A DNA stretch of 41,056 nt from the UHGV virus genome UHGV-1383708. One strand, given 5' to 3'. Both the position numbers and the translations under genes were made by a program. The first letter of the stretch is position 1. Every line of letters starts with the position of its first letter. The notes under the pieces were generated by a model. That model searched no databases and was not told where the DNA came from. It worked only from the letters and a program-made list of their open reading frames with translations. The DNA is from a virus. Shown here piece by piece: positions 4,936-34,948 of this stretch.

Positions 4936-4950
4936 TTACCTTTCAGGTAA
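4936..4950. promoter_or_regulatory. Operator palindrome TTACC-TTTCA-GGTAA
   Basis: Perfect palindrome between tailspike start (4831) and small gene (5028). Confidence 0.6.
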
Positions 4951-4987
4951 TTTGCAAAACGTGCTGGATAGCAAACAAATTATTTGC

Positions 4988-5007
4988 TACTGTATAAATA
5001 TACAGTT
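4988..5007. promoter_or_regulatory. LexA (SOS) box
   Basis: TACTGTATAAATATACAGTT, CTGT-N8-ACAG with AT-rich core, close to E. coli consensus. Confidence 0.65.
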
Positions 5008-5027
5008 ATTGCATGGAGAAGATTAAG

Positions 5028-5285
5028 ATGCAGCAGTATCACTATCCACTGGAAGAGGGATTTACCGAAAGGATTCACACGCCGGGAGGCGTCAGGTCAC
5101 TGGTGGAGGGATCGCACTTGATGAAATTACTCCGGGATCTCGATAAGGATGGATTTAATGTCGATGGCCCACTTGCCGAACTGACTGCACTGATTAACTA
5201 CGTCACCAGCTCACAGATGTCTATGCAGGATCTGCAAACACATCTCGACTATTGTGCCGAACAATTACGAAAACAAACCAGATAA
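5028..5285 (+). CDS. Small protein homologous to the antirepressor shared C-terminal domain; candidate SOS-inducible antirepressor
   Basis: 86 aa; GGAGA RBS; GGVRSLVEGSHLMKLLRDLDKDGFNVDGPLAELTAL parallels SGVLGLTENSLLMNLLNQLQEDGHDVSGAAAELTTM; LexA box 20 nt upstream. Confidence 0.55.
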   Translation: MQQYHYPLEEGFTERIHTPGGVRSLVEGSHLMKLLRDLDKDGFNVDGPLAELTALINYVTSSQMSMQDLQTHLDYCAEQLRKQTR

Positions 5286-5316: not shown

Positions 5317-5331
5317 TTACCTTTTCGGTAA
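5317..5331. promoter_or_regulatory. Operator palindrome TTACC-TTTTC-GGTAA
   Basis: Perfect palindrome right after TTGAAA-N17-TTATAT promoter-like hexamers; nested in larger inverted repeat AGGAGTGC/GCACTCCT. Confidence 0.6.
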
Positions 5332-5425
5332 ATTTACATTGCACTCCTCTTGTGCCATAGTAATCGGGCACTGGCAAAATCCAGTGCCGGGATTGGTCTC
5401 CCGGATTACTACAGAGGCACATATG

Positions 5426-5445
5426 CCGCATAAGCGGTTTTTTTA
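5426..5445 (+). terminator. Intrinsic terminator downstream of small LexA-box gene
   Basis: CCGC-ataa-GCGG hairpin followed by TTTTTTT. Confidence 0.5.
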
Positions 5446-5598
5446 TGTGTAAAGCGCACCTATTCTATGGTGGGCTGTGTGGGGGCACCGAAAGGTGCGC
5501 CGGGTTCCTTTGTAGCCGGTAAGACCAACTCTGCACAGTTCACCACCATCTGATTGGTCTCAGCGGTGGTGATTAACCTAACTACAAAGGTGATCGCT

Positions 5599-6291
5599 AT
5601 GAATACCAAACCTTCCATCTTTTCCTTTGAGTCATCCTGCCAGATCCGTATGTTCATGATTGACGGAGAACCTTGGTTTGTCACCAAAGATGTGTGCAAT
5701 GCTTTGAATATTGATGTTACACAAGCGAGAAAACTTGATAAAAAAGGCTGGAACAAAAAGGGGCTGTATTCAATACAGACCCCTGGTGGAATACAAGAAC
5801 TATCCATCGTTTCAGAATCAGGTCTCTACATCCTTATTCTGCGTTGCAAAGAGGCAATGACTGAGGGAACGAGAGCATTCAGATTTCTTGAATGGGTTAC
5901 AGGTGAGGTTCTTCCTCAGATCCGCCGCACCGGAAGTTACATTAAAAACTCGCTCCCGCAGGAAGAACGCATAAAGATGGTTGCCGACCAGGTAGCCAAC
6001 GCCACAGCATCAGCAGTGATGCAGGCAATGAAGGTAGAGAACAAAACCTACAGCGCCCCACTGAAGCCCGGCTACCGCAGCCTGATTCATTCGCCGTCTG
6101 GTGTTCTCGGCCTGACGGAGAACTCACTGCTGATGAATCTGCTGAACCAGTTACAGGAAGACGGGCACGATGTATCGGGCGCGGCGGCGGAGCTGACCAC
6201 CATGTTCTGCTACATCGTCGGTGTGAGCAAATGCCTGCGTGATATCCAGACGCACGCGGAGTACATCAACGACAAAGCAGGGTTCTTCTGA
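5599..6291 (+). CDS. Bro-N domain antirepressor with shared C-terminal domain
   Basis: 230 aa; N-terminus IRMFMIDGEPWFVTKDVCNALNI typical of Bro-N; last 77 aa near-identical to antirepressor 7543-8481. Confidence 0.7.
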   Translation: MNTKPSIFSFESSCQIRMFMIDGEPWFVTKDVCNALNIDVTQARKLDKKGWNKKGLYSIQTPGGIQELSIVSESGLYILILRCKEAMTEGTRAFRFLEWVTGEVLPQIRRTGSYIKNSLPQEERIKMVADQVANATASAVMQAMKVENKTYSAPLKPGYRSLIHSPSGVLGLTENSLLMNLLNQLQEDGHDVSGAAAELTTMFCYIVGVSKCLRDIQTHAEYINDKAGFF

Positions 6292-6376
6292 CGGGCGGCG
6301 GCACAGGGATGTGCCTACAATTATCAATAATTGTTTACACTCGTTGCAGTTAAAAGCATTATACTCATGTTTAAAA

Positions 6377-6391
6377 TTACCCGATTGGTAA
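6377..6391. promoter_or_regulatory. Operator palindrome TTACC-CGATT-GGTAA
   Basis: Perfect palindrome just downstream of a TATACT -10-like hexamer. Confidence 0.6.
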
Positions 6392-7519: not shown

Positions 7520-7542
7520 CACGTCCCTGTGCCGCCGTTCTG

Positions 7543-8481
7543 TCAGAAGAACCCTGCCTTGTCGTTGATGTATTCCGCGTGCGTCTGGATATCACGCAGG
7601 CATTTGCTCACACCGACGATGTAGCAGAACATGGTGGTCAGCTCCGCCGCCGCGCCCGATACATCGTGCCCGTCTTCCTGTAACTGGTTCAGCAGATTCA
7701 TCAGCAGTGAGTTCTCCGTCAGGCCGAGAACACCAGACGGCGAATGAATCAGGCTACGGTAGCCGGGCTTCAGTGGATAACCATAACATTTTGTCTGTGT
7801 TTTAATTGCCTCACGAAGCGCATCTAACATCTTGACTGCCACTTCATCATTCTCTGATGCAGATCCAGCAGGGAGATACTCCCCTTCAAGCGGAACCCGA
7901 GCAACAAGAGACAACGCTTCGGCAAATTGATCTTCACCAATTTCTTTGTACGAACAGCCAAAATGAGATTTCAGTGACGACCACATGGTGATCATCGCCT
8001 TAGCCTGTTTTTCTTTTGGCAGAGACTGACCGCGACTCATGACGAGTTGTTTAATGGCTTCCTGCTGTTCAGTTGTTATTTTACCCGGCAACGCCTTTTT
8101 AGCTTTGCGTGGGTTAACCACATGGCCTTTAGTCCAGTACTCGTAGAGCACATCGTCACACTCTTCCTGATACTGGATTACCTTGTCGCGGATTTCAGGG
8201 CGGACTTTGTTAGGGCTGATGCTGTTCAACCAAGCTGCCAATTTTCGTAAAGCCATACAAATCATGGCTTGCACCCCACCGGCAGAAGGTATGGTGATTT
8301 CCACCATACCCTTCGAGAAGCGTTGAGAAATCTTCTTATGTTGAGATTTCCAGTCTAGCCCCATTCCCTCAACGATAGGTTTCATTGGGGTATACGGTTC
8401 GCCGTTGTGATTGACAACATAAAGCTCTGCGCCGTGGAATGGCACGTTGATAGTAGATACTGCTGTTGCTATACTCGTCAT
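7543..8481 (-). CDS. Antirepressor (Ant-type N-terminal region plus shared C-terminal domain)
   Basis: 312 aa; downstream of arc-like gene as in P22 immI; last 77 aa near-identical to C-terminus of gene 5599-6291. Confidence 0.7.
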   Translation of the reverse strand: MTSIATAVSTINVPFHGAELYVVNHNGEPYTPMKPIVEGMGLDWKSQHKKISQRFSKGMVEITIPSAGGVQAMICMALRKLAAWLNSISPNKVRPEIRDKVIQYQEECDDVLYEYWTKGHVVNPRKAKKALPGKITTEQQEAIKQLVMSRGQSLPKEKQAKAMITMWSSLKSHFGCSYKEIGEDQFAEALSLVARVPLEGEYLPAGSASENDEVAVKMLDALREAIKTQTKCYGYPLKPGYRSLIHSPSGVLGLTENSLLMNLLNQLQEDGHDVSGAAAELTTMFCYIVGVSKCLRDIQTHAEYINDKAGFF

Positions 8482-8553
8482 GTCGTTAATTCCTATACGT
8501 AGTTTTACGATACTGAAGCCCTGACGGTCTGGCCACCGTGGGGCTTCGCTGTT
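8482..8553 (+). ncRNA. Candidate sar-like antisense RNA covering the antirepressor translation start
   Basis: Plus-strand TTGATA-N17-TATACT promoter at 8447-8475 inside ant 5' end; hairpin GAAGCCC...GGGCTTC plus T-tract at 8515-8556. Confidence 0.4.
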
Positions 8554-8721
8554 TTATGCCACGCTATTCTTCTCACCAGTGAGTCCATACACTTTCCTCA
8601 GCTGATAGATAATCTCTGTATTGAACTTTCGGCATTCTTTTTCGCCATTTCTTTCAATAGCTAACTTCACATCGTCCGGAAAACGAACTCGTCGTTGACA
8701 CATCTCTTTTGCTTTTTGCAT
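8554..8721 (-). CDS. Arc-like ribbon-helix-helix repressor
   Basis: 55 aa; AAGGAG RBS; RRVRFPDDVKLAIERNGEKECRKFNTEIIYQL resembles P22 Arc; upstream of antirepressor. Confidence 0.7.
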   Translation of the reverse strand: MQKAKEMCQRRVRFPDDVKLAIERNGEKECRKFNTEIIYQLRKVYGLTGEKNSVA

Positions 8722-8841: not shown

Positions 8842-9273
8842 ATGAGCAGAGAAGATCCACAACTAAGGATCAGACTTCCCGTCGAAGTAAAAGAAAAAAT
8901 AGAAATTTCTGCAAAAGCCAATAAGCGATCAATGAACGCTGAAATAGTACAACGTCTTGACACCAGTTTTCTGAAAGATATTCATGAAGATGACGTAATT
9001 TCTGCTTATGAAGCAAAAATCATTGCAAACAATGCACGACATGAAATATCAAATATTATTTTCAAAAGAACCTTTAATGAAATTAATAAGAAAATAACAC
9101 TTGGACATACAAGTTTTTATATAAACCTTAATGACCTTGAACTGGAATCACTTGCAGATAATGATTACCAGATCATCTTTGAAAAAACATTTAATAAGCT
9201 CAATGAACTAGGTTACATCATCTGTGAAAACTCATGGGATGCAGATGGTTTTGGAATTGAAATACCTGAATAG
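8842..9273 (+). CDS. Mnt-like ribbon-helix-helix repressor with ~100-aa C-terminal extension
   Basis: MSREDPQLRIRLPVEVKEKIEISAKANKRSMNAEIVQRL resembles P22 Mnt N-terminus; divergent from arc-like gene. Confidence 0.65.
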   Translation: MSREDPQLRIRLPVEVKEKIEISAKANKRSMNAEIVQRLDTSFLKDIHEDDVISAYEAKIIANNARHEISNIIFKRTFNEINKKITLGHTSFYINLNDLELESLADNDYQIIFEKTFNKLNELGYIICENSWDADGFGIEIPE

Positions 9274-24946: not shown

Positions 24947-24961
24947 TTACCCTTCAGGTAA
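24947..24961. promoter_or_regulatory. Operator palindrome TTACC-CTTCA-GGTAA
   Basis: Perfect palindrome 17 nt downstream of a TTGACA hexamer (24925-24930). Confidence 0.55.
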
Positions 24962-25282: not shown

Positions 25283-25359
25283 TGTGGCATTAGCTCAGTT
25301 GGACAGAGCAACCGCCTTCTAAGCGGTTGGTCGCAGGTTCGAATCCTGCATGCCACGCC
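25283..25359 (+). tRNA. tRNA-Arg (anticodon UCU), argU-like
   Basis: 77 nt; 7-bp acceptor stem GTGGCAT/ATGCCAC; anticodon stem ACCGC/GCGGT with loop CTTCTAA; T-loop TTCGAAT; encoded 3' CCA. Confidence 0.85.
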
Positions 25360-25403
25360 AGAATCACGCCTAAGGACCGTGATGCCAGAAGTTCCAGGGG
25401 CTT

Positions 25404-28094: not shown

Positions 28095-28134
28095 AACCAC
28101 CGTGGTAATAGTTACCGTTGTGGTAATAGTACCA

Positions 28135-32604: not shown

Positions 32605-32619
32605 TTACCCCTGAGGTAA
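32605..32619. promoter_or_regulatory. Operator palindrome TTACC-CCTGA-GGTAA abutting start of DUF1064-like gene
   Basis: Perfect palindrome 4 nt from ATG at 32601; putative minus-strand TTGATT-N17-TTTAAT promoter just upstream. Confidence 0.6.
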
Positions 32620-32666
32620 TTAAAAACCACATAAGACACGAAATCAATAGATTTTAGAATATTTTA

Positions 32667-32681
32667 TTACCCAGCAGGTAA
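32667..32681. promoter_or_regulatory. Operator palindrome TTACC-CAGCA-GGTAA
   Basis: Perfect palindrome upstream of putative middle promoter. Confidence 0.6.
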
Positions 32682-34532: not shown

Positions 34533-34682
34533 GGTAAGCCCTGTTATTAGTATTGGGATTACGGTCATTTTGTGCTGACACAAAAAAAATATCAACCATA
34601 TTTGGTTTTTTATTACCTTTGAGGTACGAATAGATATGAAAAGACCGCCGGGTGGCGGTCTACAGAGGGTTGTAGCTGGATA

Positions 34683-34913
34683 TCATGAGTAGAAGAAGTA
34701 TGCCAGTTCTGCTTTTGAGCGCAGCCATTGTCTTGTTTTACAGGCTTTAAAAAGCCCATTCATCAATACTTTACCTGGCATTTTGCGCTTACCTGTTAAG
34801 TGAGTCTGGATATAGTGACTCGTCGTTCCGGCTTCCTGTGCGAAGGCTTCACGCTCATCCGGAGTAAGTGCAAGCCAGTGCTTTTTGAAATCGAAATGTC
34901 CGTTATCGCTCAT
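34683..34913 (-). CDS. Cro/YdaS-like small HTH protein
   Basis: 76 aa; first gene of leftward operon; HWLALTPDEREAFAQEAGTTSHYIQTHLTGKRKMP. Confidence 0.55.
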   Translation of the reverse strand: MSDNGHFDFKKHWLALTPDEREAFAQEAGTTSHYIQTHLTGKRKMPGKVLMNGLFKACKTRQWLRSKAELAYFFYS

Positions 34914-34948
34914 AGCTATTGCCTGATATTTATTTCAGATAATAAATA

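Follow-up and report, generated by a model that had tools for sequence, protein, structure and literature searches.

An SPC32H-type antirepressor gene behind a LexA box as the likely SOS switch of a phiV10-like Escherichia coli prophage

Introduction

How could DNA damage induce a prophage whose immunity repressor carries no recognizable autocleavage domain? The question is raised by the virus genome UHGV-1383708, in which a LexA box stands in front of a small open reading frame. The whole stretch of 41,056 nucleotides that was analysed (hereafter the window) is a complete epsilon15/phiV10-like (Uetakevirus) E. coli prophage, integrated at guaA. An earlier note, made from the letters alone, had proposed that LexA derepression of a small antirepressor induces this prophage in place of cleavage of a two-HTH repressor, and had named Gifsy-type prophages and coliphage 186 Tum as the precedents.

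The antirepression switch described here is the E. coli copy of the published Ant/Rep system of the Salmonella phage SPC32H, and its mechanism is already known. That system was published in 2013 (Kim & Ryu, J Virol 87:11775) and in 2016 (Kim et al., PNAS 113:E2480), with the structures PDB 5D50 and 5D4Z. SPC32H Ant is said to be structurally distinct from the antirepressors of the Tum and Gifsy type. Later articles state that its synthesis is LexA-dependent (PMC7380047), that tetrameric Ant binds a pair of Rep dimers and takes the Rep tetramer apart (PMC9638917), and that the C-terminal CAD domain of Rep mediates both tetramerization and Ant binding (PMC9986798). The features of the window that bear on the switch are collected in Table 1.

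Table 1. Features of the antirepression loci and of the repressor region in the window
Feature	Position	Strand	Basis
Rep-type operator palindrome TTACCTTTCAGGTAA	4936-4950	.	tailspike-ant intergenic; TTACC-N5-GGTAA match
Putative ant promoter (-35 TAGCAA 4969-4974, 18-nt spacer, -10 TATAAA 4993-4998)	4969-4998	+	by eye
LexA (SOS) box TACTGTATAAATATACAGTT	4988-5007	+	weight matrix 27.8 bits, SPC32H orthology, cross-genus conservation
ant, stand-alone antirepressor, 85 aa, SPC32H Ant orthologue	5028-5285	+	tblastn and PDB match
Rep-type operator TTACCTTTTCGGTAA	5317-5331	.	adjoins -35 of isrK/C4 leader promoter
Leader promoter-like site TTTACA-17-CATAGT	5333-5361	+	promoter scan
isrK-like leader RNA	5368-5444	+	Rfam isrK 74.7 bits (gathering score 50)
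C4 target copy a1 TTGGTCT	5393-5399	+	complementarity search
C4 target copy b1 CTACAGAGG	5408-5416	+	by eye
Intrinsic terminator closing isrK-like leader	5425-5444	+	terminator scan
C4-type antisense RNA	5463-5550	+	Rfam C4 78.6 bits (gathering score 45)
Bro-N::Ant fusion antirepressor, 230 aa; Ant module 6043-6288	5599-6291	+	Pfam Bro-N, E 2.2e-13
P22_AR_N::Ant fusion antirepressor, 312 aa; Ant module 7546-7791	7543-8481	-	Pfam P22_AR_N, E 5.9e-45
Promoter-like site upstream of sar, TTGATA-17-TATACT	8447-8475	+	promoter scan
sar antisense RNA opposite arc-ant junction	8483-8550	+	Rfam sar 44.8 bits (gathering score 43)
arc-like ribbon-helix-helix repressor gene, 55 aa	8554-8721	-	ORF and Shine-Dalgarno; PHROG Arc-like repressor
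mnt-like Arc-family repressor gene, 143 aa, divergent from arc-ant	8842-9273	+	ORF, PHROG
cro-like gene, divergent from rep	34683-34913	-	ORF position; PHROG 35 transcriptional repressor, E 5.6e-13
Tripartite operator TCACCCATAAGGTAA, TTACCCATGAGGTGC, TTACCTGTTGGGTAA	34950-35012	.	between cro-like gene and rep
rep, 194-aa immunity repressor, two HTH, without S24	35068-35652	+	PDB and Pfam

Results

A strong LexA box overlaps the putative ant promoter

The earlier note had placed a near-consensus LexA box about 20 nt upstream of the small gene and had proposed weight-matrix scoring of the site, which confirmed it. With a symmetrized matrix that drew on 29 LexA sites of E. coli (Lewis 1994; Fernandez de Henestrosa 2000), the box scored 27.8 bits, compared with 29.3 bits for the consensus, and exceeded every training site scored leave-one-out (7.4-26.1 bits). 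The second-best 20-mer in the 41 kb reached 10.5 bits, the highest score among 100 shuffles was 20.2 bits, and of the three matches to CTGT-N8-ACAG in the window only the one at the box has an A/T-rich spacer. A chance palindrome was ruled out by the score relative to the shuffles and by this unique spacer. From the end of the box to the ATG at 5028 there are 20 nt, and the matrix scan of the window detected no LexA-like site near either of the two large Ant-fusion genes.

Because a consensus promoter scan gave no call at the LexA box, where the core hexamers are weak, the ant promoter was assigned by eye and is backed by alignment with SPC32H, whose ant promoter has the same geometry (TAGTCA-18-TATGTT). 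The putative -10 falls in the left half of the box, so that the LexA site would overlap it. The SPC32H box lies at the aligned position, and the clear-plaque phage SPC32N differs from SPC32H by CAG>AAG inside it; this change is one of two that a comparison of 849 bp revealed. By analogy with the SPC32H literature, LexA probably binds the box in the E. coli prophage as well. A box of 24-26 bits is found at the same distance upstream of a stand-alone ant gene in 8 of the 11 enterobacterial comparison loci (SPC32H, phiV10, two Citrobacter, Erwinia dacicola, Pseudocitrobacter, Scandinavium and Buttiauxella). A Rep-type operator is likewise kept, some 52 nt upstream of the box, in 9 of 11 related loci, among them that of SPC32H; in the window, this operator lies some 40 nt upstream of the box and may serve a leftward tailspike promoter or modulate the ant promoter (P_ant).

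The small gene encodes an orthologue of SPC32H Ant

The small ORF itself stands as first described, with a product of 85 and not 86 aa, since the stop codon had been counted in the earlier figure (85 codons plus stop). A GGAG Shine-Dalgarno sequence (5015-5018) lies 9 nt upstream of the ATG. A start at ATG 5013 (90 aa) was rejected; it has no Shine-Dalgarno sequence, and the starts of the SPC32H and PDB proteins align with 5028. The product is 89% identical to the protein annotated 'ant: anti-repressor protein' in SPC32H (KC911856, tblastn) and matches PDB 5D50 chain E over residues 2-84 (E 1.6e-47). The gene order, with the tailspike gene on one strand and ant diverging from it, is common to the window, SPC32H and phiV10. 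None of the E. coli relatives has lost the small gene or its LexA box, and the protein is 96-100% identical in them.

When 50,697 phage records were searched by tblastn with the small Ant as query, the 35 matches were all to Uetakevirus-type phages or prophages, and none was to a phage carrying Tum (DinI-like) or GfoA/GfhA. Kinship with Tum/DinI was rejected on the absence of a tblastn match and of a Pfam DinI/Tum-type domain. The antirepressors of 186 (Tum; Shearwin 1998) and of Gifsy/Fels-2 (Lemire et al. 2011, PMC3121763) resemble Ant in that they are small, LexA-repressed proteins acting on a repressor that is bound and not cleaved, but they have no detectable sequence relationship with it. 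The precedents first named thus share the logic of the switch, and the right comparator is SPC32H Ant/Rep.

Apart from a spurious DUF724 match, the small Ant has no Pfam domain at E≤0.1; neither Pfam nor NCBIfam offers a model for it, and PHROG 450, to which it belongs, is labelled 'unknown function'. It is called ant in SPC32H, whereas it is a 'hypothetical protein' in phiV10, TL-2011b, ZX5 and an inspected E. coli chromosome record, and none of the E. coli records inspected labels it ant. TL-2011b stems from an EHEC outbreak strain that was obtained from a patient with HUS.

The repressor is of the SPC32H family and has no autocleavage domain

Rep matches SPC32H Rep (5D50_A) over its full length (residues 1-190, E 4e-42) and is 100% identical to the repressors of phiV10 and ZX5. 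Pfam places an HTH_3 domain at residues 106-147 and, more weakly, a second, YdaS-like HTH at residues 21-61; it finds no Peptidase_S24 domain, and there is not one AG or CG dipeptide in all 194 residues. The description of Rep as a two-HTH protein without an autocleavage domain was thereby upheld, and an S24-cleavable repressor was rejected. For these reasons, a lambda-like induction by RecA-stimulated self-cleavage of the repressor, with the LexA box being incidental or serving the divergent tailspike gene, is extremely improbable. Nothing beyond the generic expectation for temperate phages speaks for it, and the domain analysis (no Peptidase_S24, no Ala-Gly or Cys-Gly) already contradicts it; the box, moreover, far exceeds the strength expected by chance, accompanies ant in different genera and, at 157 nt from the start codon of the tailspike gene, is upstream of every plausible leftward promoter. 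SPC32H Rep is reported not to be cleaved (Kim & Ryu 2013). PMC7380047 is consistent with this, and by analogy with the SPC32H literature the Rep of the window probably also stays intact during the SOS response.

The sequence TTACC-N5-GGTAA occurs in the window at 10 exact and 8 one-mismatch sites, against 0.72 expected, and the tripartite rep-cro operator and its half-sites (TTACC/GGTAA) are alike in SPC32H. The two phages, both of the genus Uetakevirus, agree in the position of ant beside the tailspike gene, in a LexA box that is aligned and overlaps the promoter, and in a Rep that is homologous over its full length, is built alike with two HTH domains and has no S24 domain. They differ in host, E. 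coli for the prophage of the window and Salmonella for SPC32H, and in the sequence type of Rep, which is 42% identical overall, 52% in the N-terminal domain and 33-43% in the Ant-binding C-terminal part. Since the C-terminal part of Rep has diverged from that of SPC32H, with Ant remaining 89% identical, binding of Ant to the Rep of the window is extrapolated from the SPC32H literature, by which it would be expected. The Enterobacter phages Tyrion and BUCT554, whose Reps are 75-78% identical to that of the window, carry the small Ant only and no fusion, which argues that the small Ant suffices for this type of Rep.

One could envisage that the main targets of the small Ant are the repressors of co-resident prophages, reached in trans in the manner of Gifsy cross-talk, and not its own Rep. 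Within the genus, the degree to which Ant is conserved (60-98%) does not follow the degree to which Rep has diverged (42-100%), and trans-acting antirepressors are documented in Salmonella (PMC3121763). We nevertheless consider this very unlikely: the cognate Ant/Rep pair of SPC32H co-crystallizes (5D50), ant was always accompanied by a Rep of the SPC32H-type family in the phage records found, and trans action would add to self-induction and not replace it.

Two further Ant modules are fused to other antirepressor domains

Whereas SPC32H has one Ant module, tblastn detected exactly three in the window. The claim that the small ORF parallels the C-terminal domain of the two larger antirepressors was substantiated: along 74-76 aa, the ORF is 42% identical to the C-terminal ends of 5599-6291 (pairwise E 7e-16) and 7543-8481(-) (pairwise E 3e-16). 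As to the proposal that the three versions are regulated by LexA, an operator and Arc/sar, the first and the last assignments stood; the second copy (5355-6291) is, as judged from its sequence features, a P1-type immI unit, having an isrK-like leader, a C4 RNA and a Rep-type operator at its promoter.

Like P1/P7 immI (C1 operator Op51, C4, icd, ant), the second copy has a repressor operator at the leader promoter, an isrK-like leader with a1/b1, and then a C4 RNA with loops complementary to a2/b2; the c4-a1b1 Rfam model gave 39.9 bits on the leader, below its gathering score of 46.7. The C4 loop CCTTTGTAG (5507-5515) has an exact 9-nt complement at 5582-5590, overlapping the Shine-Dalgarno sequence of the Bro-N::Ant gene, and AGACCAA (5522-5528) has exact 7-nt complements at 5554-5560 and 5393-5399. 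These pairings were taken from exact complementary blocks only; folding of C4 with its flanks gave uninformative whole-length duplexes. The terminated short leader RNA before a Bro-N antirepressor gene also resembles isrK-orf45-anrP of Gifsy-1 (Hershko-Shalev 2016, PMC4825925). No coupling ORF of the icd or orf45 type was seen between C4 and the antirepressor start; the only ORFs there are short ones that overlap the C4 RNA, and none was identified as icd or orf45. A difference from P1/P7 and Gifsy-1 is that the C-terminal effector is an SPC32H-type Ant. In ZX5, an 'ash family' ORF appears over the C4 RNA region (position estimated, unaligned).

The C-terminus of Bro-N::Ant matches 5D50_E (E 9e-14), and the protein is 80% identical overall to ZX5 ORF4, the C-terminal 107 aa being identical. 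Overexpression of ZX5 ORF4 lowered the lysogen titre about 1000-fold and cut rep mRNA by 75% in a study that examined the Bro-N protein alone, the small ORF staying 'hypothetical' (PMC9782041). The fusion could thus be the effective antirepressor, with the small ant auxiliary, or read-through from P_ant into the isrK/C4 leader could bring the SOS signal to it. In favour of these possibilities, the ZX5 protein with the identical Ant module was active in the presence of the identical Rep (PMC9782041), a scan found the stretch from the ant stop codon to the isrK terminator free of + strand terminators, and the C-terminal domain of Rep has diverged strongly from that of SPC32H but the small Ant has not. 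We regard them as unlikely, however, given that the small ant and its box are kept in all E. coli relatives, that Tyrion and BUCT554 have the same type of Rep without any fusion, and that both large genes have no LexA-like site nearby; in addition, the isrK terminator and a C4 complementary to the Shine-Dalgarno sequence of the fusion gene would damp read-through expression.

The third copy shares 94% identity with ant of the P22-like phage CUS-3 over its N-terminal 201 codons, and its residues 231-307 at the C-terminus match 5D50_E (E 6.8e-14). The P22_AR_N domain, sar, an arc-like gene and a divergent mnt-like gene stand in the order of P22 immI (mnt-arc-ant-sar). The arc-like gene is annotated 'Arc-like repressor' in TL-2011b, and the mnt-like gene, whose product is of the ribbon-helix-helix type, is an 'Arc family DNA-binding protein' (PGAP) in L004. 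Unlike in P22, the C-terminal third of the antirepressor is an SPC32H-type Ant; Pfam detected no P22_AR_C domain. With the SPC32H-type module in its place, the expected target would be a Rep of the SPC32H family and not a C2-type repressor.

The module DNA of the Bro-N and P22_AR_N copies is nearly identical and forms an inverted repeat (6023-6292 / 7542-7811). We considered this 270-nt repeat as an invertible switch and rejected it: as the 3' ends of the two genes are identical, an inversion between them would alter neither gene, so that a recent event of duplication or conversion of the module is the better reading. An exhaustive profile search found the Ant module fused to four different families of N-terminal domain; a word-indexed protein search with the small Ant yielded only near relatives, most of them stand-alone, and not a single fusion. 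Repressor binding may reside in the shared C-terminal module, a proposal consistent with the match of both fused modules to 5D50_E, with the fusion to four N-terminal families, and with the lowered lysogeny on overexpression of ZX5 ORF4, which has the identical module and comes from a phage with an identical Rep.

Discussion

The results make it highly probable that SPC32H-type antirepression, in which LexA derepression yields Ant and Ant inactivates Rep, is the SOS switch of this phiV10-like E. coli prophage. The core prediction, that a small antirepressor derepressed from LexA acts on a non-cleavable two-HTH repressor, is supported because Ant, Rep and the box are orthologous to an experimentally and structurally characterized system. 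In the lysogen, host LexA on the box would overlap the ant -10 and keep the 85-aa Ant silent, with Rep holding the lytic promoters off through the TTACC-N5-GGTAA operators. DNA damage would activate RecA and cause LexA to cleave itself, upon which ant would be transcribed. Ant would then bind Rep and dismantle the DNA-binding Rep tetramer, much as the SPC32H Ant tetramer reportedly captures the C-terminal domains of two Rep dimers; the operators would be freed and lytic development would follow, with Rep itself remaining uncut. The two fused Ant copies, placed in C4-RNA and Mnt/Arc/sar circuits, are probably extra, SOS-independent inputs to the same repressor.

The three-way wiring of the Ant module (LexA; C4/Rep operator; Mnt/Arc/sar) appears to be undescribed; it draws on inference and on one published overexpression experiment. 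A wider reading, put forward for E. coli prophages of the phiV10/TL-2011b type, is that the Ant fold is a portable Rep-inactivating module used in three anti-immunity circuits, namely the free copy under LexA, the Bro-N fusion under a P1-type C4 RNA and Rep operator, and the P22_AR_N fusion under Mnt/Arc/sar, so that one non-cleavable repressor integrates three independent inputs. We put this forward tentatively, at slightly less than an even chance. In a stronger variant, the diverged fused module (42% identity) may be tuned to another immunity type of Rep and directed against heteroimmune relatives.

The practical value of these findings lies in annotation and engineering rather than in discovery. 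The 2022 search for antirepressors in ZX5 overlooked the small ant gene, and edits of a single base in the LexA box or of a single gene would make derivatives that are constitutively lytic or locked against induction, of which the SPC32H/SPC32N pair gives an illustration. An SOS-controlled Ant encoded by the small gene would account for prophage induction without repressor cleavage. If the portable-module reading is true, an exchangeable C-terminal module would set the repressor specificity of Bro-N, AntA, Rha and P22_AR_N 'antirepressors', and fusions to the Ant module would help to predict which repressor such a protein targets.

A LexA box upstream of the stand-alone ant gene

CTGT-N8-ACAG occurs three times in the window, and only the match upstream of the small antirepressor gene has an A/T-rich spacer. 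The earlier note had placed a near-consensus LexA box about 20 nt before this gene, and a symmetrised weight matrix, built from 29 E. coli LexA sites (Lewis 1994; Fernandez de Henestrosa 2000), bore this out. The box scored 27.8 bits, compared with 29.3 for a perfect consensus, and in leave-one-out scoring surpassed all the training sites; the next best site across the 41-kb window reached 10.5 bits and the top of 100 shuffles 20.2 bits. GGAG at 5015-5018 is followed by an ATG at 5028, 20 bases 3' of the box, and the ORF ends at 5285; the ORF itself was confirmed, but it has 85 codons and not the 86 aa given previously. The hexamers of the proposed ant promoter are weak and drew no call in a consensus promoter scan; they mirror those of the counterpart (TAGTCA-18-TATGTT) in SPC32H, a Salmonella phage with a characterised Ant/Rep switch.

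Between tailspike and ant, the window and SPC32H can be aligned with their LexA boxes in register, and the window box is the orthologue of the genetically defined SPC32H operator. Over 849 bp around ant, SPC32H and its clear-plaque sibling SPC32N differ by exactly two substitutions, one of which changes CAG to AAG in the LexA box. This agrees with the work of Kim and Ryu (2013), in which one substitution in the LexA site reportedly rendered Ant constitutive and the phage lytic. A box of 24-26 bits lies at the same distance 5' of a stand-alone ant in eight of 11 enterobacterial comparison loci (SPC32H, phiV10, two Citrobacter, Erwinia dacicola, Pseudocitrobacter, Scandinavium and Buttiauxella). 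Klebsiella, Kluyvera and Superficieibacter have a degenerate left half-site (ATATG; ATATGTATAT...ACAGT; 13-18 bits), reminiscent of the operator-constitutive mutation of SPC32N, and SOS control may be weakened or lost in Superficieibacter, Kluyvera and K. pneumoniae.

Relationship of the phage, Ant and Rep to known systems

The 17-nt att core ATTGAGTGGGAATGATT forms direct repeats at 59-75 and 41002-41018 that bound the prophage, indicating that the window spans an entire integrated phage plus some tens of bases of flanking host DNA (guaA 3' end). The same core was reported for phiV10, epsilon15 and ZX5, the last of which integrates at the guaA 3' end (PMC9782041). The region around ant is 91-96% identical to the E. 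coli Uetakevirus phages phiV10, ZX5, phiv142-3 and TL-2011b. A tRNA-Arg(TCT) gene at 25284-25360 (+) is surrounded by ORFs of the minus strand (Rfam, 73.3 bits; ARAGORN).

Small Ant was found by tblastn in 35 phage records, all of them epsilon15-like phages or related Klebsiella or Enterobacter prophages. It is 89% identical to the product of the SPC32H and SPC32N gene annotated 'ant: anti-repressor protein', and when compared with all PDB chains it matched a single entry, 5D50 chain E, 'Anti-repressor protein' (E 1.6e-47). The 194-aa immunity repressor, Rep (35068-35652), aligned from end to end with chain A of that entry, 'Repressor' (E 4e-42). Rep is the same protein as the phiV10 and ZX5 repressors (100% identity); its identity with SPC32H Rep is 42% (52% in the N-terminal domain, 33-43% in the Ant-binding C-terminal part). 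The two proteins are orthologues of SPC32H Ant and Rep. Pfam placed HTH_3 at residues 106-147 of Rep and a weak second HTH at 21-61 and gave no Peptidase_S24; Ala-Gly and Cys-Gly are absent from the whole sequence. The earlier description of a repressor with two HTH motifs and no autocleavage domain was thus upheld, and a lambda-type system with a cleavable repressor was ruled out on the same grounds.

Predicted route of SOS induction

Derepression of an antirepressor by loss of LexA, as first proposed for this prophage, is the reading best supported by the box and by the Ant/Rep orthology to SPC32H. LexA would repress ant; the SOS response would remove LexA from ant, Ant would then inactivate the non-cleavable Rep through protein-protein binding, and the prophage would be induced. 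The sequence features and the orthology are direct results; LexA binding, Ant-Rep binding and Rep non-cleavage in this phage we infer from SPC32H. Papers that cite the SPC32H work describe Ant synthesis following LexA self-cleavage (PMC7380047), a DNA-bound Rep tetramer that is broken when tetrameric Ant binds two Rep dimers (PMC9638917), and a C-terminal 'CAD' domain of Rep serving tetramerisation and Ant binding (PMC9986798). The main caveat on the mechanism is the uneven divergence from SPC32H, 89% identity for Ant and 33-43% for the C-terminal part of Rep. It is mitigated because the Enterobacter phages Tyrion and BUCT554, whose Reps are 75-78% identical to that of the window, have small Ant only, and because the small gene and its box are kept in all E. 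coli relatives at 96-100% protein identity. The comparison with Gifsy prophages and 186 Tum holds for the mode of action, which is alike; a detectable relationship of small Ant to those antirepressors was not found by tblastn of phage records or in Pfam.

Three copies of the Ant module

As claimed earlier, the small ORF resembles the C-terminal domain of the two larger antirepressors (42% identity over 74-76 residues; pairwise E 7e-16 and 3e-16), and the window contains exactly three such modules. The C-termini of both larger proteins match 5D50_E at about 1e-13 (whole PDB), and Pfam assigns their N-terminal regions to Bro-N (5599-6291) and to P22_AR_N (7543-8481, minus strand). When 1.84 billion representative proteins were searched exhaustively with a profile, only 61 clusters had the Ant module, in several of which it is C-terminal on AntA, Bro-N or Phage_pRha proteins.

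The two fused modules form a 270-nt inverted repeat (6023-6292 and 7542-7811), whose last ~235 nt differ at three synonymous positions. This near-identity of the DNA, running some 25 nt beyond the stop codons, points to duplication or gene conversion in the recent past. The N-terminal 201 codons of P22_AR_N::Ant together with the sar region (7878-8547) are 94% identical to phage CUS-3 ant and about 91% identical to Stx-phage ant genes. The CUS-3 homology ends before the Ant module, at what looks like a mosaic recombination junction where the C-terminal domain was exchanged. The 1.25-kb cargo between the repeats encodes a 113-aa ORF, a DUF2335 membrane protein and a small secreted peptide; a YafO toxin occupies this slot in TL-2011b and other E. 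coli prophages.

Experimental support for the shared module is available from ZX5, whose Rep is identical to that of the window. ZX5 ORF4, an 'anti-repressor', shows 80% overall identity with the Bro-N protein of the window, and the C-terminal 107 aa of the two are identical. When ORF4 was overexpressed, the titre of lysogens fell from 1e9 to 1e6 and rep mRNA dropped by 75%; it was the sole protein tested as an antirepressor, and the small ORF went unrecognised (PMC9782041).

Control of the three copies

Three differently regulated versions had been proposed. The LexA and Arc/sar descriptions were upheld; the second copy, described as operator-controlled, has a P1-type isrK/C4 leader together with a Rep-type operator. 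TTACC-N5-GGTAA has 10 exact and 8 one-mismatch sites in the window (18, compared with 0.72 expected), including three between rep and the divergent cro-like gene. The half-sites and tripartite layout recur in SPC32H, despite Rep N-terminal domains of 52% identity. We infer that this sequence is the Rep operator. An operator-like palindrome is conserved ~52 nt 5' of the ant LexA box in nine of 11 related loci, and the dispersed sites resemble the scattered C1 operators of P1.

The Bro-N::Ant leader (5355-5598) has the layout of the P1 a1/b1-C4-a2/b2 immI scheme and parallels Gifsy-1 isrK-orf45-anrP (PMC4825925). The isrK-like RNA carries target repeats for C4 and coincides in part with a match to the 'C4 target a1/b1' model that falls below threshold. 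The C4 loop CCTTTGTAG is the exact complement of 5582-5590, a stretch overlapping the Shine-Dalgarno sequence of Bro-N::Ant, and AGACCAA of C4 could pair with either of two stretches, 5554-5560 and 5393-5399, to which it is complementary. SOS transcription from ant may run into this leader, as no plus-strand terminator was found between the ant stop codon and the leader. P22_AR_N::Ant sits in a cassette of the P22 mnt-arc-ant-sar type. The weight-matrix scan of the 41-kb window gave no LexA-like site near either large antirepressor gene.

Control elements of the three ant copies and operator-like sites
Feature	Position	Strand	Remarks
Palindrome TTACCTTTCAGGTAA	4936-4950		~40 nt upstream of LexA box
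LexA box TACTGTATAAATATACAGTT	4988-5007		20-mer; predicted control of copy 1, small ant
Proposed ant promoter, TAGCAA-18-TATAAA			-10 inside LexA box
Rep-type operator, copy 2	5317-5331		adjoins promoter-like site 5333-5361
isrK-like RNA	5368-5444	+	74.7 bits; ends in terminator
C4 antisense RNA	5463-5550	+	78.6 bits
sar antisense RNA, copy 3	8483-8550		44.8 bits (gathering score 43)
arc-like gene, copy 3	8554-8721	-	P22-type cassette
mnt-like gene, copy 3	8842-9273		divergent from arc-like gene
Operator-like sites, intergenic	4936-4950, 5317-5331, 6377-6391, 24947-24961, 28112-28126
Further operator-like sites	32605-32681, 34613-35012, 35710-35786
Degenerate LexA boxes	about 2954-2977		loci L010 (Superficieibacter), L013 (Kluyvera), L014 (Klebsiella pneumoniae ATCC 13883)

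Discussion

Every feature of the SPC32H Ant/Rep system that can be sought in a sequence is present in the window. The core finding is already known, because this is an orthologue of a system from a phage of the same genus for which genetics, biochemistry and a crystal structure are available. The E. coli small gene was not annotated as ant in any record inspected or in the searchable literature, neither Pfam nor NCBIfam has a model for it, and it belongs to no named PHROG; in ZX5 the orthologue (1696-1953) is a 'hypothetical protein'. A 38-aa 'ash family protein' of ZX5 (2150-2263) appears, from its estimated position, to coincide with the window C4 RNA.

No report of one Ant module in three classical anti-immunity circuits of one prophage was found in the searchable literature. 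The same wiring is also seen in TL-2011b and a number of E. coli chromosomes, among which the cargo between the two convergent large ant genes varies. That the Ant fold is a portable module inactivating Rep, through which one repressor takes in three independent inputs, is a possibility that we put forward tentatively, as falling a little short of probable; if shown, it would be of moderate worth.
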